This document shows, in pieces, positions 2,130-44,526 of a stretch of 64,000 bases of DNA. The position numbers and the translations under genes are program-made. Position 1 is the first letter of the stretch. Each line of letters begins with the position of its first letter. Below the pieces are notes generated by a model, which saw only the letters and a program-made list of their open reading frames with translations, did no database searches and was not told where the DNA came from. The DNA lies in the NCBI GenBank assembly GCA_900767465.1, contig CAAGAW010000009.1:67537-131536 (forward strand), read 5' to 3'. This stretch comes from Clostridia bacterium. GTDB lineage: Bacteria; Bacillota; Clostridia; Christensenellales; Pumilibacteraceae.

Positions 2130-3134
2130 TTACTTATTCATGGCTTCCTGAACCGCAACCGCGCAAGCGACGGACGCGCCTACCATGGGGTTGTTGCCCA
2201 TACCGATAAGTCCCATCATTTCTACGTGAGCGGGAACGGACGACGAACCCGCAAACTGCGCGTCGGAGTGCATTCTGCCCATCGTATCGGTCATGCCGTA
2301 CGAAGCGGGACCCGCAGCCATGTTGTCGGGGTGGAGCGTTCTGCCCGTGCCGCCGCCGGAAGCGACGGAGAAGTACTTCTTGCCGTTATCGACGCACCAT
2401 TTTTTGTACGTTCCGGCAACAGGGTGCTGGAAGCGGGTGGGGTTGGTGGAGTTTCCGGTAATGGAAACGTCAACGCTTTCGTGCTGCATAATCGCAACGC
2501 CCTCGCGAACGTCGTCCGCGCCGTAGCAACGGACTTTGGCGCGCTCGCCGTCCGAGTATGCGATCGTCTGAACGACGTTGAGTTTGCCGGTGAAGTAGTC
2601 GTACTTCGTCTGAACGTAAGTAAAGCCGTTGATTCTCGAAATGATCATCGCGGCGTCCTTTCCGAGACCGTTCAGAATAACCTGAAGAGGTTGCTGACGA
2701 ACCTTGTTTGCGGTTTTTGCGATGCCGATCGCGCCTTCCGCGGCGGCGAAGGATTCGTGACCCGCAAGGAAGCAGAAGCATTTGGTGCTTTCGCTCAGCA
2801 GCATAGCGGCAAGGTTGCCGTGACCCTGACCGACTTCGCGCTGTTCGGCAACCGAACCGGGAACGCAGAACGCCTGTAAGCCTTCGCCGATAGCGACGGC
2901 GGCGTCGGTTGCTTTGGTGCAGCCTTTGGCGATGGCGACCGCGCAGCCGAGGGTGTAAGCCCAGCTTGCGTTATCGAAAGCGATGTTCTGGGTGCCTTTT
3001 ACGATTTTGTCGGGATCGAATCCCTTGTCGAGGCACATCTTGCGCGCCTCTTCGAGGTCTTTGATACCGTACTTGGCAAGGCACGCGTTGATTTTGTCTA
3101 TTCTTTTTTCATATCCTTCAAAAGTTACGCTCAT
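2130..3134 (-). CDS. GGGtGRT-family protein (conserved, uncharacterized)
   Basis: 334-aa ORF containing the literal GGGTGRT motif and Gly/Ala-rich conserved blocks. Recognised from memory of the family signature. Confidence 0.7.
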   Translation of the reverse strand: MSVTFEGYEKRIDKINACLAKYGIKDLEEARKMCLDKGFDPDKIVKGTQNIAFDNASWAYTLGCAVAIAKGCTKATDAAVAIGEGLQAFCVPGSVAEQREVGQGHGNLAAMLLSESTKCFCFLAGHESFAAAEGAIGIAKTANKVRQQPLQVILNGLGKDAAMIISRINGFTYVQTKYDYFTGKLNVVQTIAYSDGERAKVRCYGADDVREGVAIMQHESVDVSITGNSTNPTRFQHPVAGTYKKWCVDNGKKYFSVASGGGTGRTLHPDNMAAGPASYGMTDTMGRMHSDAQFAGSSSVPAHVEMMGLIGMGNNPMVGASVACAVAVQEAMNK

Positions 3135-3145
3135 AATCGTTCTCC

Positions 3146-3838
3146 TTATTTCGTACGCGGGTCGATGTAACTTGCCGCGCCCTCGAATCTGCCGTAGTGA
3201 CCGGTAGCCTCTTTAAGAGCCTGATCCGCGCTCATACCGCCGCGGATTTTATCCATCATCACGCCCATTTTGATGAACTCGTAACCGATAATAAGGTTGT
3301 CCTTATCGAGGGCGAGTTTGGTGATATAACCTTCCGCCATTTCGAGGTAACGGACGCCCTTCGCTTCGGTGGAGTAGATGGTGCCAACCTGGCTGCGATG
3401 ACCTTTGCCGAGATCCTCCATGCCCGCGCCGATTTCGAGACCGTCTTCGGAGAAAGCGGACTGAGTTCTGCCGTAAACGATTTGCAGGAACAACTCGCGC
3501 ATAGCGGTGTTGATCGCGTCGCAAACGAGGTCGGTGTTAAGCGCTTCGAGAATAGTCTTGCCGGGGAGAATTTCGCCCGCCATAGCCGCCGAATGAGTCA
3601 TACCCGAGCAACCGATCGTCTCGACCAGAGCCTCGCGGATAACGCCTTCCTTGACGTTAAGGGTAAGTTTGCACGCGCCTTGCTGAGGAGCGCACCAGCC
3701 AACGCCGTGCGTAAGGCCGCTGATGTCTTTGATCTCGCGCGCCTGAACCCACTTACCTTCTTCGGGAATGGGGGCAGGACCGTGGTTAGGTCCTTTGCGG
3801 ACGCAAACCATTTCTTCTACTTCTTTGGAAAAATGCAT
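3146..3838 (-). CDS. NifU/IscU-like Fe-S scaffold domain protein, partner of the GGGtGRT protein
   Basis: Cys motifs CAPQQGAC, GCSGMTHSAAMAGE and LVCDAI resemble the NifU N-terminal domain. 11-bp gap to the downstream gene on the same strand. Confidence 0.55.
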   Translation of the reverse strand: MHFSKEVEEMVCVRKGPNHGPAPIPEEGKWVQAREIKDISGLTHGVGWCAPQQGACKLTLNVKEGVIREALVETIGCSGMTHSAAMAGEILPGKTILEALNTDLVCDAINTAMRELFLQIVYGRTQSAFSEDGLEIGAGMEDLGKGHRSQVGTIYSTEAKGVRYLEMAEGYITKLALDKDNLIIGYEFIKMGVMMDKIRGGMSADQALKEATGHYGRFEGAASYIDPRTK

Positions 3839-3995
3839 AATGTCCTCCTGAATCGGATTTTGTCTACCGCGTAGTATTATAACATAATCTGCGTAAATTC
3901 ACAACTGTTTTTAACCTTTTTTCTTGTTTAAGAAGTTGATTTTTTTTCGATTACGTTATATAATATAGGTGAAAGCCAAATCAAGGAGGTTTTTT

Positions 3996-5015
3996 ATGGA
4001 CAAAAGAGTACTTATCACCGGCGGCGCGGGATATATTGCCTCGCATACCGAAGTCGAACTTCTCAATCGCGGATACGAAGTAATCGCGTTCGACAATATG
4101 ATAAACTCGTGCGACGAGAGTATCAGACGGGTAGAGAAGATCACCGGCAAGAAGATAAAGTTCTACAACGCGGATATGCGCGACCGCGCGGCTATGGAAA
4201 AAATCTTTTCCGAAAACGAAATCGACAGCGTGATTCACTTCGCCGGACTCAAGGCGGTAGGCGAAAGTTGCTCGAAACCGCTCGAGTATTACGACAACAA
4301 TATTTACGGAACGCTCGTTCTTCTCGAAGTAATGCGCGAGCATAATGTCAAAAAGCTCGTGTTCTCGTCGTCGGCTACCGTTTACGGCACGCCCGAAAGA
4401 TTGCCGCTCGACGAAGAGTGTCACCTTTCCACCACCAACCCGTACGGCACGACCAAACTTATGATCGAGCGTATCTTAAAGGATCTTTATGCTGCGGATA
4501 ACACGTGGGATATCGTCCTCCTTCGTTACTTCAACCCGGTAGGCGCGCACGAAAGCGGACTTATCGGCGAGGATCCGAAAGGAATCCCCAACAACCTTAC
4601 CCCGTACATCGCGCGCGTTGCCGACGGCAAACTTCCGTGCGTAAACGTATTCGGAAACGACTACGATACCCCCGACGGAACGGGCGTACGCGACTATATC
4701 CACGTAGTCGACCTTGCGATCGGACATATCAAAGCGATCGAAAAAATGAACGACCCCGGCGTGCATATCTTCAACCTCGGCACGGGTAAAGGTTATTCCG
4801 TTCTCGACGTAATCCACGCGTTCGAGAAGGCGTGCGGTCACGAAATCCCGTACAAAATCTGTCCCCGCCGCCCCGGCGACATCGCCGCTTGTTACGCCAA
4901 CGCCGACAAGGCAAAACGCGAACTCGGTTGGGTTGCCGAACGCGGCATCGACGAAATGTGCGCGTCGCTGTGGAAGTGGCAAACTCAGAACCCGAACGGT
5001 TACGACAAGAAATAA
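3996..5015 (+). CDS. galE: UDP-glucose 4-epimerase
   Basis: [13 protein letters not shown] Rossmann motif, YGTTK catalytic motif and full-length GalE-like sequence. AGGAGG RBS upstream of the ATG at 3996; the ORF-track start at 3969 is probably too early. Confidence 0.9.
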
Positions 5016-5027
5016 ATCAACGTTTAT

Positions 5028-5061
5028 AAACGCGTTCCGAGGTAAAACGGAGCGCGTTTTT
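5028..5061 (+). terminator. rho-independent terminator after galE; a second hairpin follows at 5095-5118
   Basis: aacgcgttccg...cggagcgcgtt stem plus TTTTT, then the acgcatatacgtatgtgcgt palindrome plus TTTTT. Confidence 0.6.
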
Positions 5062-5421
5062 CTATGTCGCCGAAGCACCTTAGCGTAATAAAAACGCATA
5101 TACGTATGTGCGTTTTTGTAACATTAGCGCGAAGAGACGCGCAACATAAAGCAAGGGAATGCGGGCGTCTCGCATACGGATATAATACGTTTACCGCGGG
5201 GGATTTCTCCGCTGCGTTCGGACTATCGTCCTCACTCCGGTCGAAATGACATTATAAAAACAATCGGACCCGAATACCCCAAAACAATCGCCAGCGCCGG
5301 CTCACCGCAGGGCAGCTACAAATTACGCGAAAAAACCTTATCGAGCCACCCGAAAAACTTTGACAAGCCATCGGCGGTTATGATAGAATGTAAAGAAAAA
5401 CAACATACGGGGTAAAAGACG

Positions 5422-6348
5422 ATGGAACTTACCGACGTTAAAATAAACGGCTGCGGATACGAGGCAGAGTTTTCTTCGAGGCTCGGCGCGACCTGTTACC
5501 GCCTTACGTACGAGCCGCTCGGCTGCGACGTACTGCGCACGCCGACTTCGGAAGCCGACCTTAAAATAAATCCGTATCTTTACGGCAATCCGATCCTTTT
5601 TCCGTGCAACCGTATAAGCGGCGGAAAGTTCACGTTCGACGGCAGAGAATACCGTTTTCCGATCAACGAGCCGAAAACGAATTGCCATATTCACGGCGCG
5701 CTGTACTCGCTGCCGTTTAAGATAATATATCTCGCCGCCGATAAAGCGACTTTCCGATATGAAGCGGCAAATGGCGAATACCTCGGCTTTCCGCACGCTT
5801 TTGCGGTCGAGCGCGAATATACCGCGAACAAACGCGGGCTCACCGAAAAAACGACTTTCGTTAACCTGTCGTCCGAAAAAATGCCGCTCACACTCGCGTT
5901 CCACACCACGTTCAACGCGCCTTTTTCGGGCAAATGTAAATGTTACGCGACCGTGCCCGCCGTTTCCGAACAACTCCGCAACGAAAATTTCCTTCCGACC
6001 GGCGAATGGAGTTCCGGCGAGCGGGAGGAGCGAATGCGCCGCGGCGAGTACGAAGTCGGCAAAATCCACCTTTCCGCGCTGTATAAAATCGACAAACCCG
6101 ATTGCTTTCTCGCAACCGACGGCGCGATTTTAAAATACTCCGCCTCGCCCGAGTACGGCTACCGCATGACTTACGCCGAAAGCGGCGGCGGATTTATGGT
6201 TATCGAACCGCAAACCTCGGCGATCGATTGCTTTCACCTGCCCGAACCGCCCGAAAAGCACGGGCTTATCGCGATAAACCCGGGGGAAAGCGTAACTTTT
6301 TCCTCTTCGATAAGCGTCCGTAAAAAAGAAGTTCTGCGCACCGACTGA
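5422..6348 (+). CDS. aldose 1-epimerase family protein (LacX-like)
   Basis: YGNPILFPCNRI and HIHGALY motifs typical of the galactose mutarotase-like fold. Confidence 0.75.
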   Translation: MELTDVKINGCGYEAEFSSRLGATCYRLTYEPLGCDVLRTPTSEADLKINPYLYGNPILFPCNRISGGKFTFDGREYRFPINEPKTNCHIHGALYSLPFKIIYLAADKATFRYEAANGEYLGFPHAFAVEREYTANKRGLTEKTTFVNLSSEKMPLTLAFHTTFNAPFSGKCKCYATVPAVSEQLRNENFLPTGEWSSGEREERMRRGEYEVGKIHLSALYKIDKPDCFLATDGAILKYSASPEYGYRMTYAESGGGFMVIEPQTSAIDCFHLPEPPEKHGLIAINPGESVTFSSSISVRKKEVLRTD

Positions 6349-6403
6349 AAACGTGCGCCCGTCCGAACCCGAAAAAGGTTTAATTATTTTGCAAGATCCG
6401 TAA

Positions 6404-6433
6404 AAAATTTTGGCTTGAAACAGCCCTCGTTTC
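6404..6433 (+). promoter_or_regulatory. sigma-A-like promoter (TTGAAA-17-TACAAT) for the large surface protein gene
   Basis: Hexamers read from the sequence. A GGAGG RBS lies 9 nt before the ATG at 6515. Confidence 0.4.
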
Positions 6434-6514
6434 GTGATACAATAAGCGTGATAAAGGGGCGGATCGCAACCGATTTGCCGCGACGAATCTGCAAAATGAC
6501 GGAGGTTAAGGAAA

Positions 6515-9500
6515 ATGAAAAGAGGGAAACGGTGGACTTTGGCTCTTATATTGTGCCTTGTAGTCGCTACTATCGGTGCGGCTGCTGCGGGGTGCGGAAA
6601 AGCCAAAACTTACGTAATCAACTTTAATTCTATGGGGGGGGGGAACGGTTGCCGCGGCGGAATACACCGCAGGTGACACAAAATTCTACTTTCCCACGCC
6701 CGCGCAAGGCGATAAGTACGGATTCAGGTTCCTCGGCTGGTATTACGACGAGGCGTGTTCGGACGGTAAAGCCGCAGACGCCAAGAATATCGACGTAAGT
6801 TACGCAACCGACGGAACGATTACTCTTTACGCCAAGTGGTCGGATTTGTACAACATAAATTTCGAAACCTCTTCGGACGATTATTTCTCAAAAAAGGAAT
6901 ATCACTTCGGAGATAAGGTAAAACTTTCCGATCTGCCCGTTCCGAAGAATATGGAACGCGGCGGCGTTTCCGCGCCCTTCAAGTACTGGAAAAACGAAGC
7001 CGAGGACGTTGCGGTAACCAAGGACTTCAACATGCCGCCCAACGACGTGTACCTCAAAGCGGTTTACGATACCGGAATGAGCAATCAGTTCGATCTCGAC
7101 GACGACGGATTCGTAAGCAACCTCGGCATGGGCAAAAAGGCGTTCAGCGACGTTCGCGGCGCGTACGACGAAGAAACGGGTACGTACGCAAGCGCGGAAC
7201 TTACCGACGGCAAGGCGATGTCGTTTGACTTTACGATGACGTTCGGCGAATACGGACAGGACGCGGGCGCCGTTTTCGCGGCTAACTCGTACACCAACGG
7301 CACGTTCGATTCCCCGATGTTCTTCTATATCACCAGTACCGCTGCAAACGCGGCTAACTTCGGGTCTATTCAGATCTGGGGACCGACCGTGAAAGGCGAA
7401 GGCGAAGAAGCGGTCGTAACCGCCGACAGAGAACTCAAAATGCTGCGTATTTCCGACGCGGTTTTCGAGGGTTCGGAATATCTTGCCAAGATAAACGCGT
7501 GCCGCGAGTCGGGCGAACCCGCAACGTTTACGTACACCGTCCGCAGATGCGGCGATACGTGGATTATCGGCGTTGACGGAGTAGAGTACGTTTCGATCAA
7601 AGCGGGCGACGATGCGAAATCGGGCGGCAAAGTCGCTGCGGTAAACGCGGGCTACTGTGGAATAGTAACCAAAACCGATCAGGTTCATTATAAGAATATC
7701 GGACTCGTAGACGCGGACAAAGCGGAAATAACTTTCGACGCGGGCGAGGGCGCAACGATAACCGAAACCGAGCGCAAAATCGCTTGGGGAGAGGCTGTGG
7801 GAACGCTTCCCGTACCCACCCGCGAAGGACTTACTTTCCTCGGCTGGTTCTATTACGACGGCGCAACCTTAAAAACGCTTACCGATACGACGACGTTTAC
7901 TTCGGACGCGTGGAGAATTTCCGCGTTCGCCGAATGGGACGATCCGACGGCTCAGCATTATAACATAGTGTTCGACGGCGGCGAGGGCGGCTACACCCAC
8001 GCGGAGATCGAAAACTGGTACGAGGGCAAGCATATTACGCTTCCGAAACCCGAACGCCACCTTTTCCATACGTACGACGGCGCGTGGTACTACGACGCGG
8101 AATGTACTCAACCGGTTGACGAGAGAAACATAAGCGCGGCAACCGCCACGGGCGAGGGAGCGATTAAAACGCTCACCTTTTACGGAAAAGCGACCTACTC
8201 GAAATTCAGCAGCGGCGAGTGGAGCGAGGACGAAAACGGAAACATCACCGGCAGCGGCGAAACTTTCGTGGACGGAACCGCACTCGTCGTCGGCAAAACC
8301 TTCTCGGCGGATATCACGCTTCCCGCGTACGGAACAACTTACGGCAATACTTACTTGTATATAGGCTCGTCCGACGTAAAAGTCGCGCAGTATCGGGTAA
8401 TTATTCTCGGCACCAACGGCACCAACGTCAAGAAAAATACCAACGGTGCGATCCAACTTTACGAATACACCGACGGCAGTTACAAATTCCTCGGAGAGGC
8501 GTTCTCGACCCGTTACTATCTCGGAGCGCTTGCTGGCACGACGTATAATACCGGTTACGAGGCGTACAAGACGAGCGGCGAGCCGTTTACCTTCACCGTA
8601 AGCGTTGCCGCGGCGGCAGACAAAACGTACTTCTTCGTCAACGGAAACCTTCTTTATACCGTAAACAAAACCGTTGCCGGCAAGTATTCGGGCGTCGGCG
8701 TAGCAACCGCAAACACTTCCGCGTTCTCAGGTCTCAAAGCAGAGGACAGCAAAGCGGTTATCACGTTCAACGCGGACGGCGGCATTCTCACCGGCGACGC
8801 GACCCGCACCGTTGCCGCAGGCTCGGCGCTCGGTACGCTTCCCGAAGTGACGAAAGCAGGTTCCCGATTCCTCGGCTGGTTCGACGGCAACACCGCAGTC
8901 ACCGACGAAACCGTTATCGGCGCGGACGTTATGAACAAAACGATCGTTGCGAAGTGGGCGGAGCAGGTTACCGTTACGCTTAACGTAAACGGCGGCGACG
9001 CAATCGAAAAAACCGAATACGTAATCGATAAGGGCGCAACTCTCGGCGAGTCGCTTCCCGTTCCGACCCGCGCGGGCTATACTTTCCTCGGCTGGTATAA
9101 CGGCGATACGAAAGCGGACGACGATACGACCTATTCCGAAAGCGCAACTCTTACCGCTAAGTGGGAACAGAAAGTAACCGTCACCTTCGATCCGAAAGAA
9201 GGAGAGGTAACGGAAACTACCCGCCTTATCGATAAGGGCGCGGCAATCGGCGAACTTCCCGTACCGACGCGCTCCGAATACGCATTCCTCGGCTGGTTCG
9301 ACGGCGATACGCGGGTTACTACCGAATCGACCTTTACCGCAAACGTGACTCTTATAGCAAAGTGGGAATCCGCTCCGACTCATACGATCATCACAGTTAA
9401 ATACGACGACGGCGTAACGCCGGACGGAACTATCGACCTTAACGTCGGCACCGCTATCGGCTCGCAACTTCCCACACCCACTCGCGACGGCTACCGTCTC

Positions 9501-10760
9501 GACGGCTGGAAAGACAACGGCGGCAACGTCGTAACGGAGGAAACCACTTTCTCGACCTCTACCGCAACCATCACCGCTCAGTGGGTGGAAGTGGTAACCG
9601 TAACGCTCGACGCGAAAGGCGGCAGCGGAGTTACCGCGACTGCGTTTACGGTAGATAAGGGTACGGCTATCGGCTCGAATCTTCCTTCGTCCGTAACCGC
9701 GCCTCTCAACGGCGACGTGTTTATCGGCTGGTTCGACGGCGACAAGCAAGCCACCGCCGAAACCGTGGTATCCGAAAACTTAACCCTTACCGCGCATTAC
9801 GGCTGGGACGGCGCGACCGTTTCCGAATCGCTTAGCGGCGAAGGAACGACCGAAAAACCGTTCCTTATCGGCAGCGGAGCCGATCTTAAACTTCTTTCCT
9901 CTTCGTACGGCAGCGAAACGTATAAAGGTAAGGTTTTTGCACTCAACGCAAACATAAACCTCAACGACAAGGCGTGGACGCCTATCGGAACGACTGCATC
10001 GTTGTTTACCGGAACGTTCGACGGAAAATCGTTTGCGATTACCGGAATGAAAGTTGAGGGCGCAAGTTACCTCGGCTTGTTCGGTGTGATTAAGGCAACG
10101 GTAAAAGATCTTACTGTCGACGGCGAAGTAACCGGCACAGCCGGTGTAAACGGAATCCTTGCCGGACAGATTCAGGGCGGAAGCACGATATCCGGCGTAA
10201 CGACGAAAGGATCGGTTACCGGCGGAGGATCGGACGTAGGCGGAATCGCGGGAGATATTAAACTCGGTACCGGCAACGTTACGGTTTCGGATTGTGTCAA
10301 CTACGCAACGATTACATGTAACGCGTCGGCAACAGTTGCGCTTGCCGGAGGAATCACCGGCGGAACCGACAACATTGCGGTTATTATCAGAAATTGCGTA
10401 AACTACGGCAAAGTAACCTCGAAAAACAACTTCGTCGGCGGAATTGCAGGACTGTTCCGTAAACACGCCGATTCGCTTATCGAAAATTGCAAAAACTTCG
10501 GAAATATCACCGGTAAAACCGGAACGGGCGGTATCGCCGGCGGTAACAGGGCTCTTGTAAAGACGAGTTATTGCTACGGAGACGCTCTTCTCAACAATAA
10601 GGCGGCAAGCACGTACAATCTTGTCGGCAACACGACGCAAACACCGACAACCGGAGCGATTCCCACCGGCAGTATTATCGGACAAATGGACGATAAAAAC
10701 GGCGGAACAATCGACGAATCCTCCTGCGGACTTTGCGATGCGGAAGGCAACGCAATCTGA
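6515..10760 (+). CDS. large surface lipoprotein with about 10 Flg_new (Listeria-Bacteroides) repeats and a C-terminal GLUG-motif region; frameshifted in a G10 tract, so the signal peptide is out of frame with the body
   Basis: The ATG at 6515 has RBS and promoter and encodes MKRGKRWTLALILCLVVATIGAAAAGCGK, a signal peptide with a lipobox-like AAGC, then stops at 6676. The 1304-aa ORF in the -1 frame remains open upstream to 6618 and encodes in-frame Flg_new repeat sequence (FLGWYYDE...TLYAKW) before its first ATG. Nine G instead of ten would fuse the two parts. Repeats of the G..LP.PTR.GY.FLGWFDG...AKW type and GGIAG GLUG-like repeats were read from the translation. Confidence 0.6.
6634..6643 (+). 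repeat. homopolymeric G10 tract at the frameshift site (candidate slipped-strand phase-variation switch, or homopolymer sequencing error)
   Basis: Ten consecutive G at 6634-6643. Confidence 0.8.
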
Positions 10761-10804
10761 GCGCAAAAACTTCAATCGCCTGACAATTCATTACGGAGAA
10801 AAGA

Positions 10805-13417
10805 ATGAGGAAAACAAGCAAATTTACGAAAATCGCGGCGTCCGCGCTCTGTCTCGTAACGGGCGCGGCGGCGACGTTCGGGTGCGGCGAAAAACCTATG
10901 CCACCGTACGATCCCGCAACTCGCACGCCCACCGACGCTAACGAAATCGCCTATACGATAGACGCGGACGATTACGGCTATTACAACAACTACGTCGAGT
11001 TTTACGACGGCGACGGCGACGTCTACGACATCGGCGATCCGTTCGTATTCCGGTTCGACGGCAAGTATTACCTTTACACCTCGCTAAACGGCGACAAAAA
11101 GAAAACCGGCAAAATTCCTTGCTGGTCGTCCGAAAACCTCGTCGACTGGCAGTGGGAAGGCTGGGCGTACGACCCGAAGTCGAGTTCGGAATCTTCCGAA
11201 ACGTACATAGCGTTCGCGCCCGAAGTAGTCTACTACAAAGGCTGGTTCTATATGTGCGAGTCGCGCAGAGGGCAGGGGCATTACTTCTTCCGCTCGGATA
11301 AGCCGCAAGGACCGTATACGAAAATTTCCGAAAACCTCGGCATGGGAATCGACGGATCGTTCCACCTTGCCGCCGACGGAAAACTGTATTTCCTTTCCGC
11401 CGAAAACGTGTACGCTAATCGTGTTTGTTGGTTCGAGATCGACTTTATCGAAGAGAACGGCGAGCCGAAAGTAGTCGTCGATCCGACCGCTTACCATATA
11501 ATCGACGACGCGTACGAATCCGGCTGGACGGAAGGACCGGGCGTATTTGCCCGCAATGGTTACGAATATCTTACCTACGCGGCAAACCACGTGGACGCGC
11601 CGCAGTATCGGGTAGCCTACTCGTACGCAAAGAACGCTATCGTGTTCGGCGATGCGGAAAACCTCAACTCGCCGTGGGATAACGTCACGCTCGTGTCTAC
11701 CGGTATCGACAATCCTGCCGTTCCCGGTTACGCAAGCAAAACGGGCAATACCGCGGTTACCGATTATCGCGGCTTAGGACACAGTTCCAACGTCGTCGGA
11801 CCTAACCTCGACAGCATTTACACCGCTTACCACAACGCGGGCAGAATCAACTACCGCAACGAAAACGACAACACGGGCGGAACGCGCAAGTTCAACGTAA
11901 CGCAATACTTCACCAACGAAGGTTACCTTCTTACCAACGGACTCGGCAACTACACCCGCACTAAACCCGAAATGCCCGACTATACGGCTTTGGCTTCCGT
12001 GCTTTCGGACGGTAAAAGCACGGAGTCGACCGGAAACGTTTTCACCGCCGAAATTTCTTTCCGTCTCACAGACGGCGCGGCGGAAGTCGTCGCGGGCGGA
12101 TCGACCGTTGCGATCAGCGGCGCAAACCTTACCGTGAAAAAGGGTAGCGAATCGCTCGCTCACGGAACCGTTCCGACCTCGACCAATCCCGACGCTATCC
12201 ATACCGTAAAGGTTATAAACGGCGCAAGCAAAGCGGAAATCTATTTCGACAACGTGCTTGCCGCAAAAACCTCCGTTTCGCTCGGCGCGGGCAAGATCGG
12301 TTACGGCGCGGGCGCGCGAGGCACTAGTCTTATGTTCACAAACGACGCTTTCGGAACGTCCGACTTCGACGCGGTAAAAGACCTTACCGGTTCGTTCCCC
12401 GCGTTTGCCTACCTCAAAGGCGAAAATCGCGGATTCTCGCTATCTAAGGGTAAACTCAACGCCAACGGCGTTCGTCAGGGCGAGAAAGAAACCACAAAAT
12501 CGGTTGCCGGCGCGAAAATCGCAAACTCGCTTTCCACCGAAAAAACGGGTAACGTACCCGTAACCGCAACGGTGCTCAGCCGCGGCGACTGGGTAAAATA
12601 CCTCGTCAACGCGCCCGCTGCCGACACGTACGCGCTCAACGCCCTTATCGGCAAGGAGAGCGCGGGTTGCACGTTCGAGATTATCGTCGATAACGAAACG
12701 ATAAGTAAGTTCGTCGTTCCCGTAGCGGCGGCGTTCGGCGATTCGGATTACGTCAACCTTTCGATCGGCAGTTTCGATTGCGGAGCCGGACTTCATACGC
12801 TCAAAATCCGAGTTTACGATGGCACGCTCGCGGTAGCCAACTTTTCGACGGTAAAGGGCGGCAATGGAGAAAACGTAACGAATACGCTCAAAAAGGACGA
12901 GGCTTCTTCTTCGCCGTTTGTCCGCAAAATGGGCAAAAATTCGAGTTACACGGCAAACGGACTTATTCTTAACCCTACGGACGACAAAACGTTGTTCCTT
13001 ACCGGCGAGAAGGGCGCGGCTAACTTTGAAATGAGCGTCAACGTTTCCGTCGTGCAAAGCGGCAGAGGCGGCATAATGTTCCGTATGAACGATTTCGGTT
13101 ACGCCACAGCCAAGGCTCAGCAACTCAACTGGCACGGCTACTATCTCGATATAAACGAAAACGCCGTAACGCTCACAAAGGACGGACACACCAAGAGCGA
13201 AAAACTTTTCTTCGGTCGTCCTGCGGCGTCGCTTAAAGGCGGTGCGGTCGTTAAAGTCACCGTCCGCGCCGAAAACGGTAATATCACGATTTCGATGAAC
13301 GATAACGTACTCGTTTCGCACTTCGATCCCGAGGCGTACCTCAGCGGGTATATCGGGCTTTACAGCGAAAAAGGCGCAATGTTTATTTACTCCGATTATT
13401 CGTATCGGACACTTTAA
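10805..13417 (+). CDS. glycoside hydrolase family 43-like lipoprotein with C-terminal CBM6/35-like and beta-sandwich domains
   Basis: Signal peptide with Cys. DPFVFRFDGKYYLY and GWAYDP five-bladed propeller motifs. GDWVKYLVNAPAADTYALNA is a CBM6-like block. Confidence 0.7.
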   Translation: MRKTSKFTKIAASALCLVTGAAATFGCGEKPMPPYDPATRTPTDANEIAYTIDADDYGYYNNYVEFYDGDGDVYDIGDPFVFRFDGKYYLYTSLNGDKKKTGKIPCWSSENLVDWQWEGWAYDPKSSSESSETYIAFAPEVVYYKGWFYMCESRRGQGHYFFRSDKPQGPYTKISENLGMGIDGSFHLAADGKLYFLSAENVYANRVCWFEIDFIEENGEPKVVVDPTAYHIIDDAYESGWTEGPGVFARNGYEYLTYAANHVDAPQYRVAYSYAKNAIVFGDAENLNSPWDNVTLVSTGIDNPAVPGYASKTGNTAVTDYRGLGHSSNVVGPNLDSIYTAYHNAGRINYRNENDNTGGTRKFNVTQYFTNEGYLLTNGLGNYTRTKPEMPDYTALASVLSDGKSTESTGNVFTAEISFRLTDGAAEVVAGGSTVAISGANLTVKKGSESLAHGTVPTSTNPDAIHTVKVINGASKAEIYFDNVLAAKTSVSLGAGKIGYGAGARGTSLMFTNDAFGTSDFDAVKDLTGSFPAFAYLKGENRGFSLSKGKLNANGVRQGEKETTKSVAGAKIANSLSTEKTGNVPVTATVLSRGDWVKYLVNAPAADTYALNALIGKESAGCTFEIIVDNETISKFVVPVAAAFGDSDYVNLSIGSFDCGAGLHTLKIRVYDGTLAVANFSTVKGGNGENVTNTLKKDEASSSPFVRKMGKNSSYTANGLILNPTDDKTLFLTGEKGAANFEMSVNVSVVQSGRGGIMFRMNDFGYATAKAQQLNWHGYYLDINENAVTLTKDGHTKSEKLFFGRPAASLKGGAVVKVTVRAENGNITISMNDNVLVSHFDPEAYLSGYIGLYSEKGAMFIYSDYSYRTL

Positions 13418-13434: not shown

Positions 13435-14931
13435 ATGAAAACGAAAAAGTTAGCGGCGCTTCTGCTCGCGGGACTTATGACTTTCGCAACGCTCACCGGT
13501 TGCGGCGGCAATTCAAACGTCGACGACGGTACGGGCAAAGAGTGGGAGTCGCTTAAACACAACGACCTTGTTTCGATCGAATTCTGGGGCAGAGACGAGG
13601 GAACGGAAGAGGTAAATTACCGCAACTACATCAACACGTTCAACTCCGAGCATAGCAATATCGTCGTTTCCGTCAAGTGGGAAACGGACGCTCTGGCGTA
13701 TAACAGCGCGCTCGACGGCAAAGGGAACAACCTTCCCGACGTGTTCATGCTTTCCAACGCAATGTTCACCTCTTACGCGGCAAGCGGCAAACTCGCAAAT
13801 ATCCGCTCGCACGTGGACGACGCGGTGCTTAACGATCTTTACGAAAACGCATACGAAGTTTATTACTTCGATCACTCGACCAAAAAAGTCGGCAAAACGG
13901 ACTCAGCCGCGCTTTACGGACTTCCCAAAGATCAGGGACCGTACGCGCTTTGCTACAACGAGGATCTGCTCACGAAAGCGGCAAACGCGTATAACGCAAC
14001 CGCCGCAGAGAAAGACAAGATCGATCTCGGCCGCGTCACCGATCCCAAAAACCCGATGACTTTCGGCGAGTTTATCGACCTAGGCAAAAAACTTAAAACC
14101 CAACTCAAAACCGGCACGGAAGCAGAATACGTATGTTCCGGTTACGATATGGAAAGCGCGGTTTACTCGAATAACGCCAACTTCTTCACCGACGACAGCG
14201 GCAGAACGGCTGCTATCGACTCGGATAACTTCGTAGGCGCGATCCGGTTTATGCAGAATCTCTACAAAGAGGGGATCCTGCCTTCCGCCGGCACGAGTTC
14301 GCAGAACGCCGAAAACCTCTTCAAGCAAGGAAGAGCGATATTCTTCTACGCCGGTCCGTGGAAGCAGAAAACCTACTGGAAAGAAATCGACGTCGATACC
14401 AACGCAAAACGCTTTGCGTGGAATATTCTTCCCGTGCTTTGCGGCGACGCGGAAGGCTCGGTTTCCACGGCTTATATGGGCGGTATGTGCTACGCGATTT
14501 CGCGCAACTGCAAGTACAAAGACGCCGCGCTCGAACTCGTCAGATACCTTTCCGCCGACAGCGGTTCGCAGCGTAACCAGTATCGCAGCGGACAGTGTAT
14601 TCCCAACCTCAAAAGCCTTGCGGAAGAGTATTCGACCGACAGCAAAGGGCTTCTCGGCGACAAGAACCCCGCCAACCGCAGCGTATGGATCGATTGCGTA
14701 AACGGCACGAGCGCGACCGACAAAATCACAGCGAAATACCGCGCCGCGTCTTATACCTTTACCGACACGTGGCAGACCAACCTCAACACGTATATGCGCA
14801 CCGGCGAGTACGGCTCGTTCTGGGAAGCAAAGGGCGGTCAGTGGGTGGACGTAAAAGCCGCTCTTACGGCTTATAAACCGACCATGCAGGAAGCGCTCGA
14901 CAACGACGCGAGAAGACTCGACAGAATGTAA
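13435..14931 (+). CDS. carbohydrate ABC transporter substrate-binding lipoprotein (SBP family 1)
   Basis: Lipobox LTGC, size and composition typical of a CUT1 sugar-binding protein. Directly upstream of two permease genes. Confidence 0.75.
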   Translation: MKTKKLAALLLAGLMTFATLTGCGGNSNVDDGTGKEWESLKHNDLVSIEFWGRDEGTEEVNYRNYINTFNSEHSNIVVSVKWETDALAYNSALDGKGNNLPDVFMLSNAMFTSYAASGKLANIRSHVDDAVLNDLYENAYEVYYFDHSTKKVGKTDSAALYGLPKDQGPYALCYNEDLLTKAANAYNATAAEKDKIDLGRVTDPKNPMTFGEFIDLGKKLKTQLKTGTEAEYVCSGYDMESAVYSNNANFFTDDSGRTAAIDSDNFVGAIRFMQNLYKEGILPSAGTSSQNAENLFKQGRAIFFYAGPWKQKTYWKEIDVDTNAKRFAWNILPVLCGDAEGSVSTAYMGGMCYAISRNCKYKDAALELVRYLSADSGSQRNQYRSGQCIPNLKSLAEEYSTDSKGLLGDKNPANRSVWIDCVNGTSATDKITAKYRAASYTFTDTWQTNLNTYMRTGEYGSFWEAKGGQWVDVKAALTAYKPTMQEALDNDARRLDRM

Positions 14932-14946: not shown

Positions 14947-15936
14947 ATGACGGCTTACGAAGAAATCGCAACCGTATCCGAACCGGCGCAGGCGGGCAGG
15001 ATGACGTCTCTTGCCCCCGCGCCGAAAAAAGGAACGAGCAAACTGAAACAGAAAGAACATATTACCGCGCTTGCGTTTATTTCGGTCAAGTACGTCGGAC
15101 TTTTCATCTTCACGCTACTGCCGCTGTTATTAGCGTTATTGTACGGTTTTACCGACTATACCGGCGCGGACACGGGAAAGCCGTTCTTTTCGCAACTCGA
15201 CAAATTATGGCTCGGATTCGGTAACTACAAGGCTTTGTTCGCAAGCCTTACTTACCGCAAACCGTTCCTTAACGCGATAAAGAACAATCTTATTTTTCTT
15301 ATCAGCGTTCCGCTCGGAATCTTTTTCGGTCTTATCGTGGCGTTCCTTCTTTCGCAGGGACGTAAAGTATACGGCTCTAAAATCATTCGTATGCTAATCT
15401 ACGTTCCCGTCGTCTCGTCGGCTGTCGCGATGGCGATAATCTGGCAGTACATATTCGATAACGAGTACGGTATCATCAATCAGGTTCTCGGGGTCAATAT
15501 TCCGTGGATGACTAACTCAGGCTGGCTCAAAGTCGCCATCATCATAAAAACGGTATGGGGAAGCCTCGGCAGAACGATGATCCTTTGTATCGCCGGTCTT
15601 ATGGCGGTGTCCAAGGACTATTACGAAGCCGCCGAAATCGACGGAGCAAACCGCTTTACGCAGTTTTTCAAAATTTCGATTCCGCTCATTTCGCCCACGC
15701 TGTTCTATCTTCTTTGCACCGGAGTTATCGGAAATTTACAGTCGTACGTAGATTCGGAAGTTTTCGCGAATAAGCATTCCGGCGGACAGACGATAGTGTA
15801 TTTTATCTGGGAGTACGGAATCCGCAAAGGTTTGTACGGTCTTGCGTCCGCGGCGTCGTTCGTCCTTTCGATCAGCATTATGATCATTACGTTCGCGCAG
15901 TTCAAGATATCCGAAAAATGGGTTTACAGCGAGTAG
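14947..15936 (+). CDS. carbohydrate ABC transporter permease (MalF/UgpA-like)
   Basis: Six or more TM segments and the EAA loop EAAEIDGANRFTQFFKISIP. GGAGG RBS. Confidence 0.8.
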   Translation: MTAYEEIATVSEPAQAGRMTSLAPAPKKGTSKLKQKEHITALAFISVKYVGLFIFTLLPLLLALLYGFTDYTGADTGKPFFSQLDKLWLGFGNYKALFASLTYRKPFLNAIKNNLIFLISVPLGIFFGLIVAFLLSQGRKVYGSKIIRMLIYVPVVSSAVAMAIIWQYIFDNEYGIINQVLGVNIPWMTNSGWLKVAIIIKTVWGSLGRTMILCIAGLMAVSKDYYEAAEIDGANRFTQFFKISIPLISPTLFYLLCTGVIGNLQSYVDSEVFANKHSGGQTIVYFIWEYGIRKGLYGLASAASFVLSISIMIITFAQFKISEKWVYSE

Positions 15937-15945
15937 GAGGGGTCT

Positions 15946-16851
15946 ATGGAAAACGATAATTTCACAAGTCTGCCCGCAACCCGGCTCGCTCCGCCCGCGA
16001 AAACCGTTCGCGAATCCGTAAAAGTAAAAGACGTAGTTTCGTACGTAATAATCTATCTGTTCCTCATACTCGTGTGCTTTACTTGCGTGTTTCCGTTCTT
16101 CTGGATGATAACGTCAAGTCTCAAATACGCGCACGAAGTCAACTCGTTCACGCTCAGGATTTTCCCCGAAAGTCCGCAGTGGAGCAATTACGCCGAAGTT
16201 TTCCGGCAAAGCAACAATCTCTTCCGCGGCGTTCTCAACACACTGATCGTCGAAGTCGCGACGATTCCCGTTTGCGTGTTTATTTCGGGAATGTCGGCGT
16301 TCGCGTTCTCGAAAATGGAGCTTAAACACAAAGACGCGCACCTTATGATCCAACTCAGCGCGCTTATGATTCCTTACGCGTGCCTTATGCTCCCGCTTTA
16401 TCGCGCGTATAACACACTTAACCTCGTCGATACGCTGTGGCCGCTTATTCTGCCATCGCTGTTCGGCGGCGTGTCCATGATGTTCTTCTTCGTCCAGTAT
16501 CAGCGCGGGATTCCGTCGGCGATATTCGAGGCGGCAAAAGTGGACGGAGCGGGGTATATGCGACAGTACTGCACGATAATGATACCTCTTATGGGACCCG
16601 CTATCGCCGCGCAAGTCATATTTATGTTCGTCGGAACGTGGAACGACTACCTCGCGCCGTCGATCTACATCACTTCGGCAAACGTGCGCACCCTGCAGAT
16701 AATGGTTCGTTCGCTTGCGTCCGACACCAGCCTTCCGAAACCCATCGCGTTTGCGGGAGCGGTCGTAGCGTGTCTGCCGCTTTACGTAATCTATATCGCG
16801 TTCCAGCGTTTCTTTATCGAAGGACTTGCCGTGGGAGGAGTTAAAGGCTGA
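15946..16851 (+). CDS. carbohydrate ABC transporter permease (MalG/UgpE-like)
   Basis: EAA loop EAAKVDGAGYMRQYCTIMIP. GGAGG RBS. Confidence 0.8.
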   Translation: MENDNFTSLPATRLAPPAKTVRESVKVKDVVSYVIIYLFLILVCFTCVFPFFWMITSSLKYAHEVNSFTLRIFPESPQWSNYAEVFRQSNNLFRGVLNTLIVEVATIPVCVFISGMSAFAFSKMELKHKDAHLMIQLSALMIPYACLMLPLYRAYNTLNLVDTLWPLILPSLFGGVSMMFFFVQYQRGIPSAIFEAAKVDGAGYMRQYCTIMIPLMGPAIAAQVIFMFVGTWNDYLAPSIYITSANVRTLQIMVRSLASDTSLPKPIAFAGAVVACLPLYVIYIAFQRFFIEGLAVGGVKG

Positions 16852-18638
16852 TGAAACACGCAAAATGCTACAAAAAAGGGTATCCTCGACCGCGTTTTGT
16901 GCGCGACAACTTCACGTCGCTCGACGGAGAGTGGAATTTCGCGTTTGACGACGAAAACGCCGGCGAGCGCAAAAAATGGTACAAGACGGGCGTAAACGAC
17001 CTTAAAATCAACGTTCCGTTCGCGTATCAATGCGCTTTAAGCGGAATAAACGTCGACGACCGCCACGAAATCGTGTGGTATTCGCGCACGTTTACCGCCG
17101 TAAAAAAACGAAACAAACGGCTGCTTATCAACTTCGAGGGCGCGGATCACGAAGCCAAAGTCTGGCTTAACGGCGAACTTCTCGGCACCCACGCCGGCGG
17201 CTATACGCGCTTTACGTTCGACCTTACCGACTACCTCAAAAACGGCGAAAATCTGCTCGTCGTAAAATGCGTCGACCGCCGTTCGGCTCTTACCGTGCGC
17301 GGAAAGCAACGCTACGTCGAGAAAAACGTTTCCTGCTTTTACACCGATACCACCGGAATATGGAAACCCGTCTGGCTCGAAGAGGTCGGCGACGGTTACC
17401 TTTTCGGAGTAAGCGCGCTTTGCAACTACTCGGAATGCGAAGCGGTTGTCGAATATAAAATTCAACGGTTCACCGACGGACTGTCGCTCGAAACGCGGCT
17501 GTATTTCGACGGCGAATTCGTCCGCACGACCGAAGTGACCTGCGACGACGACTACGGCAAAATCAAACTCGATCTGACGTTAAAAAACAAGGTTTTACCC
17601 ATGAAGCCGTGGAGCGCGGGCAGATCCGGACAGTTTTTCGACGTCGAGTATATCTTAAAAAAGAACGGCAAAGAAATCGATCGGGCGGGCAGTTACGTCG
17701 GACTCGTCGATTATCGCGTCCGCGGCAACGAAATTCAACTCAACTACCTGTCGTGTTTGTATATGCGTATGGTTCTCGATCAGGGCTACTTCGAGGGCGG
17801 CGACCTTACCGCTCCGGACGAAGGAGCGTTGACGGCGGACGTTGAACTTATAAAGCAGGCGGGATTCAACGGCGTACGGATTCACCAGAAAATAGAGGAC
17901 GAGCGATTCTATTACTATTGCGATATGCTCGGGCTGTATTTCTGGCTCGAAATGCCGGCGTTTTACGATTTCACCTCCGCCTCGGCTGAGGCCGCAACCC
18001 GCGAATGGTCGGAAATCGTAAATCAGTACAAGGGCTATCTTTCGCTTATGGCGTACGTTCCCGTCAACGAAAGCTGGGGCGTGCTGCAAACGTCCGAAAA
18101 CGAAAAAATGCAAGCGTTCACGGCGGGGCTTTATTACCTCACCAAGTCGCTTGACCCGACACGCCTCGTTATTTCCAACGACGGCTGGGAACACACGATC
18201 AGCGACGTCGCGACGCTTCATAACTACGCCCAAACGGGCAAGGAAATCAAACTCGCTTATTCGGATATGCAAGGTTTTATGAACGGGAAAATGCCGCTCG
18301 ACCTTCATACGCGCTCGCCTTACGCGGACGGTTTTTCGTACGGCGGACAGCCGGTTATCATAAGCGAATACGGCGGAGTGGCGTACGCGGGCGACCAAAG
18401 CGGCTGGGGATACGGCGAATCGGCAGTCAGCGAAGACGGGTACGTAAACCGCGTCCGCGATCTTACCGCCGCGATAGTCGGACTCAAAGATTGTCAGGGG
18501 TATTGCTATACTCAGTTTACCGACGTAATGCAGGAGCAGAACGGGCTTTTCAGGATCGACCGTTCGCCCAAAATTTCAATAGACAAAATGCGCAAAATCA
18601 ACGGAATCACCCGCAGCGCGACGATAGAGGAGGTCTGA
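16851..18638 (+). CDS. glycoside hydrolase family 2 protein (beta-galactosidase/mannosidase/glucuronidase-like)
   Basis: GH2 N-terminal sugar-binding motifs (DGEWNF, HAGGYTRFTFDLT, GENLL.V.V) and the clan GH-A NESWG acid/base motif. TGATG stop/start overlap with the upstream permease. Confidence 0.7.
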   Translation: MKHAKCYKKGYPRPRFVRDNFTSLDGEWNFAFDDENAGERKKWYKTGVNDLKINVPFAYQCALSGINVDDRHEIVWYSRTFTAVKKRNKRLLINFEGADHEAKVWLNGELLGTHAGGYTRFTFDLTDYLKNGENLLVVKCVDRRSALTVRGKQRYVEKNVSCFYTDTTGIWKPVWLEEVGDGYLFGVSALCNYSECEAVVEYKIQRFTDGLSLETRLYFDGEFVRTTEVTCDDDYGKIKLDLTLKNKVLPMKPWSAGRSGQFFDVEYILKKNGKEIDRAGSYVGLVDYRVRGNEIQLNYLSCLYMRMVLDQGYFEGGDLTAPDEGALTADVELIKQAGFNGVRIHQKIEDERFYYYCDMLGLYFWLEMPAFYDFTSASAEAATREWSEIVNQYKGYLSLMAYVPVNESWGVLQTSENEKMQAFTAGLYYLTKSLDPTRLVISNDGWEHTISDVATLHNYAQTGKEIKLAYSDMQGFMNGKMPLDLHTRSPYADGFSYGGQPVIISEYGGVAYAGDQSGWGYGESAVSEDGYVNRVRDLTAAIVGLKDCQGYCYTQFTDVMQEQNGLFRIDRSPKISIDKMRKINGITRSATIEEV

Positions 18639-18640: not shown

Positions 18641-19756
18641 ATGGCAGAAATCAAAGGCAAATGGAGTAAAGAACGCGCGTGGGAGTGGTATAACGCCCAG
18701 CCGTGGATAAGAGGGTTCAACGGTTATCCGTCCAACTGCGTAAATCGCGTCGCGATGTGGCAGCGGTATAATCACAAGGAAGTTTTCGATCAGATCGCGT
18801 ACGAATTCGATATTGCCCGTCAGACGGGATTCAACGCCGTGCGCGCGATAATTCAGTTCGAGGTGTGGTATTACGAACACGACTCGTTTATGTCCAACCT
18901 CGAAGAATATCTTACGCTTGCGGACAGTTACGGAATCAAAGTAATGCTTACGCTCGGTAACGACTGTACCGTCCCCAAAGACAGGTTCAGACAGGTCGTT
19001 TTCGGCGAGCAGAACGTCGACTGGGGGTATCACAGCGGCATAAAAGCGGGTCCGCACGCGGCAGGATACAACGAACCCGGGTATTGCCTTCTCGACGAGC
19101 CGGATATCGAGCCGTTCTACTACAAAATGGTGGACGAGATCGCCGCGAAGTACGCCCATGACGAGCGTATTCAGATCTGGGACGTGTGGAACGAGCCGGG
19201 CAACGGCAGACGTTACGACCTCAGCCGCAAAGCAATGGAAAAGTTCTTCGAAATTATCCGCTCGTACGATCCGATTCAGCCGCTTACGGCGGATTGCTGG
19301 AGTTACGAGGACGATTTTTCTCAGCCTCGCCGCGACATCGAAAAAGTCGCGCTCGAACTCAGCGACGTAATCACTTTCCACTATTACGGATCATACGAAA
19401 ATATGATACGTATTATCGAAAACCTGCGTGAAAAATACGGCCGCCCGCTTATCAACAACGAGTGGCTCAATCGTATCGCGGGCAACGACGTAGCCGAACT
19501 TTTTCCGCTGTTCTACCTCGAAAAAATCGGTTCGTACCACTGGGGACTGATTCAGGGCTACTCGCAGACTTACGAGCCGTGGGGGCATTATTTCGTCGAT
19601 TACCTTAAAGAGGGATCGACTCTCGACCTTCGTCTTTGGCAGCACGATCTCTATCGTTTCAACGGCTTGCCATACGACGTAAAGGAAATTAAAATCATCG
19701 AAAAGTTCTGTGCACTCGCCGACGAGAGAGATCGTAAAAGCGGAGTTCTGAAATGA
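18641..19756 (+). CDS. clan GH-A glycoside hydrolase (GH5-like TIM barrel)
   Basis: AWEWYNAQPWIRGFNGYPSNCVNRVAMWQ N-terminus and the WDVWNEPG catalytic NEP motif. GGAGG RBS before the ATG at 18641; the ORF-track start at 18491 overlaps the GH2 gene and is probably too early. Confidence 0.6.
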   Translation: MAEIKGKWSKERAWEWYNAQPWIRGFNGYPSNCVNRVAMWQRYNHKEVFDQIAYEFDIARQTGFNAVRAIIQFEVWYYEHDSFMSNLEEYLTLADSYGIKVMLTLGNDCTVPKDRFRQVVFGEQNVDWGYHSGIKAGPHAAGYNEPGYCLLDEPDIEPFYYKMVDEIAAKYAHDERIQIWDVWNEPGNGRRYDLSRKAMEKFFEIIRSYDPIQPLTADCWSYEDDFSQPRRDIEKVALELSDVITFHYYGSYENMIRIIENLREKYGRPLINNEWLNRIAGNDVAELFPLFYLEKIGSYHWGLIQGYSQTYEPWGHYFVDYLKEGSTLDLRLWQHDLYRFNGLPYDVKEIKIIEKFCALADERDRKSGVLK

Positions 19757-21076: not shown

Positions 21077-22144
21077 ATGATAACTGTACTCGTTGAGGAA
21101 AATTATGCAAAGAACAGCCGCGTCGGTCTTATACTGGACGGCATTCTTTCGGTTACGCGTCGCAAGCGCGTTGCGGTCGAGGTTTACACGGACGAAAAGA
21201 AGATAAAAAGCAACCCGCGCGTAGTCGTTCTTATCTGTGCGTCGCTCAAATGGGCGACCGAAACCATCGAAAAATTCAACGATCGCGGAATCCACCCGTT
21301 GTTGTTCGGATTCCAGTATATCGACACGGTGTTCAGGTACAGTTGCATAACGCTTACTTATACGCAGAACACATATCTTCTTACCAGGTATCTTCTCGAT
21401 AAAGACAACGGCGAAACCGTTTTTCTCGGCGCGAACAAGGACTCGATGACCGACCGTCAGAAATACGTTGGAATGGAACTTGCGGTAAAAGAGGCGGGAA
21501 CGACCTATCGCGAAGTGGAAAACAAGGGCGACGTCGTCGCGTGTATCGACGAGTTTATGAAGAACTCCGACGGCGTGAAAAACGTCGTTTGCAGCAGCGA
21601 CGCCGTAGCGATAATCCTCTGTACGCGCTATCCCGAAGTCCCGACGAAATTCAACGTCTGCAGTTGCAGCGCGATGAAGTTTTCCGAGCGTATGCAGGTA
21701 AAATATCCGACCGCTTGTATCAACTACTACAAAGCGGGCGTTCAGATTGCCGAACTCTATTTGTTTTTGGAAAGAAGCGACGAAATCAATTCTACGTTCA
21801 TGACGCTCGAGATGGATCTTAACCTTAACGACGGCGGCGAAAACTCGCTTTCGTATGAGTCGAGAGGACTTACGAAAAGCAGTAAAACCGTCGATTTTTA
21901 CGGCGATCCGAGCGTAAGAGAAGTGGAACTTCTCGAAAATATGCTCTTAAAATGCGACGAAATCGACGAGGCGATCCTCAAATGGATAATGGCGGACGTG
22001 CCGTACGAAAAGATCGCGGAAATCGAAAATCTCGCGGTAAATACGGTAAAGTACCGTATACACGCCATGCTCGTAAATTCGGGCATTCAGTCCAAGCGCA
22101 AACTCGTCGAACTTCTCGGTTTTTACGGGCTTCGGTTTGACTGA
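21077..22144 (+). CDS. transcriptional regulator: periplasmic-binding-protein-like sugar-sensor domain fused to a C-terminal LuxR/GerE-type HTH
   Basis: C-terminal EIAEIENLAVNTVKYRIHAMLVNSGIQSKRKLVELL matches a LuxR-type HTH. N-terminal 250 aa looks like an alpha/beta LacI-type sugar-binding fold without an N-terminal HTH. The start codon is uncertain. Confidence 0.5.
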   Translation: MITVLVEENYAKNSRVGLILDGILSVTRRKRVAVEVYTDEKKIKSNPRVVVLICASLKWATETIEKFNDRGIHPLLFGFQYIDTVFRYSCITLTYTQNTYLLTRYLLDKDNGETVFLGANKDSMTDRQKYVGMELAVKEAGTTYREVENKGDVVACIDEFMKNSDGVKNVVCSSDAVAIILCTRYPEVPTKFNVCSCSAMKFSERMQVKYPTACINYYKAGVQIAELYLFLERSDEINSTFMTLEMDLNLNDGGENSLSYESRGLTKSSKTVDFYGDPSVREVELLENMLLKCDEIDEAILKWIMADVPYEKIAEIENLAVNTVKYRIHAMLVNSGIQSKRKLVELLGFYGLRFD

Positions 22145-41044: not shown

Positions 41045-41068
41045 AGAGTAAAAACAAACGTCACATCG

Positions 41069-44524: not shown

Positions 44525-44526
44525 GT

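Follow-up and report, generated by a model that had tools for sequence, protein, structure and literature searches.

Does a run of ten consecutive guanines near the start of a large surface-protein gene of an uncultured human-gut Clostridia species mark an error of sequencing, a gene in decay, or a site at which the gene is turned on and off by changes in the length of the run? The question is raised by a 64-kb stretch of contig CAAGAW010000009.1 from a Clostridia bacterium (the window, to which all plain coordinates refer), in which the run separates the signal peptide of a predicted lipoprotein from the body of the same protein. The feature is most likely a slippage-prone homopolymer that gives ON and OFF alleles of the lipoprotein gene, and as such of an already known type. 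Runs of eight, nine and ten Gs (G8, G9 and G10) occur among assemblies of the species, and the evidence leans, by no great amount, towards these being a real length polymorphism generated by replication slippage, with G9 as the ON allele and G8 and G10 as null alleles.

A gene split at a run of ten guanines

The features of the start region are as follows.

6415–6443, forward strand: promoter-like site TTGAAA-17 nt-TACAAT with an extended −10 TG, also conserved in loci L068–L070 of the sibling lineage
6501–6505, forward strand: Shine-Dalgarno sequence GGAGG, 9 nucleotides (nt) 5′ of ATG 6515
6515–6595, forward strand: predicted lipoprotein signal peptide of 26 amino acids (aa) and lipobox, with the Cys27 codon TGC at 6593–6595, by a PROSITE PS51257-style pattern
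6515–6676, forward strand: truncated product of the G10 allele, 53 aa, comprising the signal peptide, 16 native residues and 10 out-of-frame residues
6611–6836, forward strand: first Flg_new (Listeria-Bacteroides repeat) domain, Pfam PF09479, cut by the frameshift
6618–10760, forward strand: body of the surface protein in the adjacent frame, equal to database protein P0017
6634–6643, forward strand: G10 homopolymer over the codons for Gly41–43 (GGG GGG GGA in the G9 allele), a +1 frameshift in the window

An initial annotation of the window had described this arrangement from the letters of the DNA, and most of it is borne out. The G10 run lies where it was placed, a promoter-like site and a ribosome-binding site precede ATG 6515, and the open reading frame (ORF) that starts there passes through the run to a stop codon at 6674–6676. 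The frame of the body is closed by a TAA at 6615–6617, is open from 6618 and ends at 10760, and as claimed it encodes Flg_new sequence ahead of its first possible start; that start, however, is a TTG at 6846 rather than an ATG, giving 1304 aa, and no Shine-Dalgarno sequence was found before it. The signal peptide and its lipobox were also recovered, but at 26 aa by the PS51257-style pattern and not at the 40 aa proposed, which is instead the distance to the tract.

Removal of a single G from the window sequence yields by computation one ORF of 1414 aa, as had been predicted, and the G9 gene is called intact in six other assemblies. The single ancestral ORF is confirmed by these G9 assemblies and by intact protein variants in the databases. 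At more than the 7 nt or so taken as the lower limit for a homopolymer locus (within an ORF or promoter), the tract is placed such that a change of one base toggles the gene between a full-length and a truncated product: G9 encodes 1414 aa, G10 encodes 53 aa plus an orphan body, and G8 encodes 93 aa plus an orphan body. Positions 1–65 of the Flg_new profile match residues 33–107 of the fused protein (Pfam, E = 3.5e-9), and because this match spans the tract, the frameshift cuts one domain in two.

The start of the restored protein has the character of a signal peptidase II substrate, as judged from its sequence. The N-terminus reads MKRGKRW and is followed by a hydrophobic stretch, the PS51257-style regular expression matches VATIGAAAAGC at residues 17–27 of the restored protein, ending in Cys27, and the lipobox is kept in orthologues as AAGC, AVGC, FSAC and AAGC. 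The gene product is thus predicted to be a 1414-aa cell-surface lipoprotein, lipidated at Cys27. No RNA element was found with Rfam in the leader of the gene.

Runs of this kind are exceptional in the surrounding DNA. The window contains 82 G-runs of length 4, seven of length 5, none of lengths 6–9 and one of length 10, and no C run of at least 6, with only 0.08 G runs of at least 9 expected in the window under a first-order Markov model. The 358 kb of loci compared from this species group contain no other G or C run of at least 7. The codons are equally atypical: across 40 window genes GGG is the rarest glycine codon (10.7% of Gly codons), and the tract uses it twice, while GGG-GGG is found in none of 69 Gly-Gly codon pairs of these genes. 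The 17 other Gly-Gly motifs of the lipoprotein are written with GGC, GGA or GGT, never with GGG.

Tract length among assemblies and its possible origins

Tract lengths were taken from consensus assemblies only. G9 was found in six assemblies (L001, L002, L098, L099, L100 and L101) that represent five strains, each with an intact gene called, G8 in one (L114) and G10 in one, the window itself. Two metagenome contigs from the same strain as the window were found in ENA by exact-protein look-up of the neighbouring aldose epimerase, and both carry G9 and the 1414-aa gene. Between the window and ERZ27229642 k119_81385 (417,846 nt), one G is the sole difference in 61,026 compared bases, and runs of A8, T8 and T9 are all concordant, suggesting that the window assembly is not generally error-prone at homopolymers. 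The SAMN02333939 scaffold equals the window except for the same G over the regions compared (window 2176–12349 and 40005–54604). That one strain reads G9 in two assemblies and G10 in the window is the only hint of switching within a clonal lineage. Four further strains from other samples, at 95–98% nucleotide identity, all have G9.

The protein databases give a similar picture. The cluster of proteins at 90% identity has 78 members, of which 15 are listed; among those listed, 14 of the 15 are full length (1404–1426 aa) and contain NFNSMGGGTV, 13 of them being variants beyond the known 1414-aa gene. The fifteenth, P0017, is a 1304-aa NCBI entry identical to the window ORF, on a contig of 417,423 nt that is presumably the source of the window. 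The products expected from other tract lengths were written out first and then looked up exactly, and the predicted 93-aa product of G8 was found in the database as P0043. Its contig (L114; ERZ16021021, P107-NODE_1335) has a tract of G8 that splits the gene into ORFs of 93 and 1304 aa. At 98.3% identity to the window, it differs by a single coding indel, in the tract, and all remaining indels are intergenic. The predicted products of G7, G11 and G13 were absent from the protein collection on exact look-up, as were the 53-aa product, the truncated forms of three further strain variants and an ON form for the G8 strain. Contig look-ups with the 1304-aa and 53-aa products returned none, and an exact flank pattern with a variable gap had no match in metagenome_contigs. 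As the 53-aa product is absent and the 1304-aa P0017 is present, G10 alleles are probably visible only through their 1304-aa products.

Variation in tract length among orthologous loci had been put forward as a test in the initial annotation. Such variation appears among consensus assemblies of the species, in the form of G8, G9 and G10, but the run itself is missing from the sibling lineage (86–90% nucleotide identity), which has an intact gene reading ATG GGA/GGC GGA GGA at this point. More distant orthologues have GGC GGC at the site and also no G-run. The tract is therefore young and lineage-specific, having come about through two synonymous changes. With 15% of 4-fold sites varying, the probability that both tract sites stay invariant among six strains is P = 0.72, and conservation of the tract as a sign of selection was rejected, its retention being no more than expected by chance. 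Locus L004 was considered as a gene broken at the tract and was also rejected, as its contig starts at around residue 425 and is uninformative on the tract. Positions 1–24 of L004 (CAAFIN010000062.1, metagenome-assembled genome (MAG) HGM11397) are Illumina adapter sequence, CCCTACACGACGCTCTTCCGATCT, joined to an internal part of the orthologous gene.

The sequence of events proposed for the locus begins with the two synonymous changes, which turned the Gly-Gly-Gly codons 41–43 into a G9 run prone to slipped-strand mispairing in replication. G9 would be the functional and predominant allele, encoding the complete pre-lipoprotein, whereas with G10 or G8 translation would end after 53 or 93 residues, respectively, and the signal peptide and lipobox would be detached from the body. 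Having no Shine-Dalgarno-linked start, the body would not be made, and the surface protein would be lost (OFF). The early stop may also depress the GH43 and ABC-transporter genes downstream, since these are apparently co-transcribed with the lipoprotein gene, and reversion by slippage would be intrinsically likely for such a tract. The deviant lengths would accordingly be real alleles that arise by slippage and are able to revert, with loss of expression of the lipoprotein and polarity on the downstream genes as their probable consequence. The tract is, most likely, a mutational hot spot that acts as an ON/OFF site, and an evolved contingency switch is not demonstrated.

An artefact of homopolymer sequencing or assembly must be taken seriously as a competing explanation, although we do not expect it to be the correct one. 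The organism would then be truly G9 with an intact gene, the extra G would come from read errors, error correction or bubble resolution, and the G8 of L114 would have a like origin. Several observations point this way and weigh against real alleles: the same-strain assemblies that otherwise match the window, possibly from the same sample, show G9, so G10 could be an assembler's choice or error, and the near-equal lengths of the 417,423- and 417,846-nt contigs suggest that the same reads were assembled twice; coverage of the G8 contig is low, at ~6.6x going by its name; and there are published warnings, on artefacts of error correction near homopolymers and, explicitly in Penno et al. (2022, PMC9187656), on the unreliability of G-tract lengths in databases and the misbehaviour of Illumina reads at G-tracts. 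The deviant alleles are also few, two against a cluster of 78 sequence variants (15 members listed), and no in-frame length variants (G6, G12) were seen among them. Against an artefact, the tract alone is discordant in the 61 kb compared between the window and ERZ27229642, where runs from A8 to T9 agree, and the two deviations at this one site are independent, opposite in direction (G8 and G10), and from different strains and different assemblers. Illumina homopolymer indel errors occur mainly above ~14 nt (literature reviewed in PMC8808543), so that 9–10 bases fall below the usual size for consensus failure, and since assemblers take whichever path has more support, G10 in the consensus implies that a substantial number of reads carry it. 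Had the same reads yielded G9 in two pipelines and G10 in another, both lengths would probably be present among them.

Real alleles do not by themselves make an evolved switch, a contingency locus of the kind that the initial annotation had proposed. In such a locus selection would keep the tract for stochastic ON/OFF expression of the lipoprotein, perhaps of the whole operon, with evasion of phages or antibodies, or the burden of making the protein where its glycan is lacking, as possible pressures. The frameshift anatomy belonging to such a locus was found, and tract length differs among the consensus assemblies, whereas retention of the tract beyond chance and the common occurrence of both states were not, and we consider selection for switching unlikely. 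It would account for a tract of atypical codons located 5′ in the first gene of an operon, with a surface-exposed product, for a G-run unique in a region otherwise purged of them, and for the presence of both kinds of OFF allele (G8 and G10); the hypervariability of the C-terminal domain is what diversifying selection on a surface target would produce, a second homopolymer-split gene for a surface polymer (A8, Glyphos_transf) is present in the window, and the pilus switch of Bifidobacterium breve is a close precedent. The tract is, however, lacking in the sibling lineage and in more distant orthologues, its retention in six strains is expected by chance, and ON dominates, with ~2 OFF among ~80 variants (15 listed), where classical loci commonly show both states; nor did a scan of 94 other Flg_new loci reveal a recurring 5′ pattern, with four G/C runs of at least 8 in 762 kb. 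The hypervariable domain, the dispensable island around the gene and the A8-split gene hint at a surface target under pressure, but they also fit simple decay. Plain pseudogenisation, with G10 real but effectively a fixed null in the early decay of a dispensable island, is less likely again: the whole 20-kb island is deleted in some strains, with microhomology and a 3′ gene stub, and there are further split genes in the polysaccharide locus of the window, but the 4.2-kb ORF is otherwise undamaged, as are all downstream genes, and both match the same-strain G9 assemblies exactly, so that the lesion would have to be very recent, and a one-base change in a tract is the single most reversible kind of mutation. 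Recoding, by which RNA-polymerase slippage or +1 ribosomal slippage on G10 would restore the frame in some products, is hardly credible. Long homopolymers do permit perfect re-pairing after a slip. Transcriptional slippage has been discussed for comparable tracts (PMC9187656). No stimulatory element was noticed at the tract, where no folding search was made; the run is followed by AAC, an ordinary Asn codon and not a stop; and in almost every other assembly the protein is encoded directly, by G9.

Should the favoured reading of a slippage polymorphism hold and the alleles be real, slippage-driven ON/OFF variation in a Gram-positive gut commensal would be visible in public metagenome assemblies, which would extend to Clostridia what is known among gut bacteria chiefly from Campylobacter, Helicobacter and the pili of bifidobacteria. 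Should they be artefacts, the locus warns against trusting homopolymer lengths in MAGs without reads. The MAG annotation and P0017 present a 1304-aa TTG-initiated protein with no signal peptide, while the gene of the species encodes a 1414-aa lipoprotein. A bolder proposal, which we regard as quite unlikely, is that a recently evolved poly-G contingency tract switches the display of a giant, antigenically variable Flg_new lipoprotein, and perhaps the operon through polarity. If true, this would, together with the A8-split gene for a teichoic-acid-type transferase, point to a repeat-based 'phasome' in gut Firmicutes, in which phase variation has so far been ascribed mainly to invertible DNA.

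The restored lipoprotein and its genomic surroundings

The C-terminal domain of the lipoprotein, the genes that follow and the island that holds them are as follows.

9966–10757, forward strand: strain-hypervariable C-terminal domain of the lipoprotein, residues 1151–1414, related to PDB 3n6z
10805–13417, forward strand: GH43 with a 3-keto-disaccharide-hydrolase-like domain (Pfam)
13435–14931, forward strand: ABC solute-binding protein (Pfam)
14947–16851, forward strand: two permeases (Pfam)
16851–18638, forward strand: GH2 (Pfam)
18641–19756, forward strand: GH2-like (Pfam)
19753–20970, forward strand: CE2 esterase (Pfam)
21077–22144, forward strand: 355-aa ORF with no family assigned, sub-threshold helix-turn-helix and periplasmic-binding matches only
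22242–25358, forward strand: DUF5107/TPR protein (Pfam)
5225–25331, no strand: 20.1-kb accessory island, with an aldose 1-epimerase gene, the lipoprotein gene and the glycan cluster, absent from some strains

The restored protein consists of the 26-aa signal, around nine Flg_new repeats, two beta-rich inserts and the strain-variable C-terminal domain. The initial annotation had named it a Flg_new/GLUG surface protein, and only the first of these families was recovered: Flg_new matches the body in six stretches (Pfam PF09479, E = 1.5e-47; TIGR02543, E = 1.4e-15), while GLUG (PF07581) gave no Pfam match at E ≤ 10 in the C-terminal 310–328 aa or in 3n6z. The two inserts and the C-terminal domain matched no Pfam or NCBIfam family, and no recognisable catalytic domain or carbohydrate-binding module (CBM) was found in the lipoprotein with either collection. 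For the first insert (residues 186–400), AlphaFold modelling from a single sequence reached a pLDDT of 45.6, too poor for the model to be taken into a fold search. Word-indexed searches for homologues gave no match to the first insert domain and, for the fused N-terminal 476 aa, distant Flg_new proteins only, the near-identical cluster being missed.

The C-terminal domain is a hot spot of strain-level diversity in which replacements are cassette-like. Identity among 14 variants is 42–96% over residues 1151–1414, compared with 95–99% over residues 111–1150. The domain is related to 3n6z_A (phmmer, E = 8.6e-12), a structural genomics entry named 'putative immunoglobulin A1 protease' whose own function is unproven; the likeness covers ~250 C-terminal residues and includes repeated xGGIAG/NC motifs, the GGIAG-like motifs in the C-terminal domain being seen by eye only.

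As the initial annotation had stated, the gene heads a polysaccharide-utilisation cluster. It is the first gene of a same-strand glycan-utilisation operon, with no plus-strand terminator or promoter found between 10760 and 10805, and the combination on one strand of carbohydrate-active enzymes with a carbohydrate ABC transporter is that of a Gram-positive polysaccharide-utilisation locus. As for a dedicated transcriptional regulator, the locus gave only the sub-threshold matches of the 355-aa ORF. The context suggests a possible role for the lipoprotein in glycan capture. In L105 and L110, position 5224 abuts 25332, with a GTTCG microhomology at the joint, and the 3′ end of the DUF5107/TPR gene survives as a stub; the microhomology at the junction and the retained stub indicate that the island was lost from these strains by deletion. 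L111 has ~2.5 kb of unrelated genes where the island sits in the window.

Elsewhere in the window, a gene of the CDP-glycerol glycerophosphotransferase family (Glyphos_transf, 45404–46596) is split at an A8 run at 45715–45722, with a 107-aa ORF matching profile positions 17–82 and a 306-aa ORF matching positions 170–366 (Pfam). A9 instead of A8 would give one Glyphos_transf ORF of 397 aa, and A8 is shared by both other same-strain assemblies. The split gene may be a pseudogene of the surface-polymer locus, or the A8 run may act as a second homopolymer ON/OFF site. A GT2 glycosyltransferase at 44527–45341 is likewise present as two ORFs of 158 and 113 aa that overlap in ATGA, and a GT4 glycosyltransferase at 46606–47684 as a Glyco_transf_4 part of 196 aa and a Glycos_transf_1 part of 163 aa, again with an ATGA overlap; each pair could encode a true two-chain enzyme or stem from a frameshift in one gene. 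The sole Rfam/ARAGORN RNA match in the window, a tRNA-Leu (CAG) at 52700–52785, lies close to the polysaccharide-biosynthesis locus, on its downstream side. Further on, a perfect direct repeat of 93 nt occurs at 54037–54129 and 54907–54999, 870 nt apart, and includes a promoter-like TTGACG...TACACT; each copy precedes an ORF of ~200 aa without assigned function (54261–54869 and 55035–55667).

Comparison with known systems

Poly-G and poly-C loci of Campylobacter jejuni, Neisseria (hmbR/hpuAB, PMC3786947), Haemophilus and Helicobacter (PMC2823697) resemble the present tract in having an intragenic homopolymer near the 5′ end of a surface gene that is turned ON or OFF by one base. Those classical genomes, however, hold tens of tracts (the 'phasome') with both states common, whereas the 64 kb here contain a single G-tract and ON is predominant. 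Poly-G slippage with a phenotype related to surface glycans is also known for gsmA of Mycoplasma agalactiae and rmpA of Klebsiella pneumoniae (PMC9187656; bioRxiv 10.1101/2025.09.12.675794), but these are genes of other classes, a glucan synthase and a capsule regulator, for which switching is experimentally documented. In its protein architecture the locus recalls the RuGH5a xanthanase locus of Ruminococcaceae UCG13 (bioRxiv 10.1101/2021.06.02.446819), which also encodes a large secreted protein with multiple Flg_new (PF09479) repeats in a polysaccharide-utilisation locus of gut Clostridia; RuGH5a has a catalytic GH5 and CBMs, unlike the lipoprotein here, and no homopolymer switch has been described for it.

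The closest analogue is the G10/G9 pilus switch of Bifidobacterium breve. In strain UCC2003, the sortase-dependent pilus clusters bbr_1889a/b (G10) and bbr_0113a/b (G11) are turned ON and OFF by replication slippage (Penno et al., 2022, PMC9187656), which was proven by error-corrected deep sequencing and found to be enriched in vivo, and an early stop has been reported to lower downstream expression in bifidobacterial pilus operons (PMC9187656). The two cases differ in that G-tracts recur in pilus genes across Bifidobacterium while the present tract is confined to one lineage, and in that the switch is proven there, whereas here a lipoprotein of a Clostridia glycan-utilisation island is known from consensus assemblies alone. 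They are alike in that both organisms are Gram-positive human-gut commensals with a poly-G tract in the first gene of an operon for a surface structure, and in both the annotated G10 splits a gene that G9 fuses (ON), leaving a second ORF without a start of its own.

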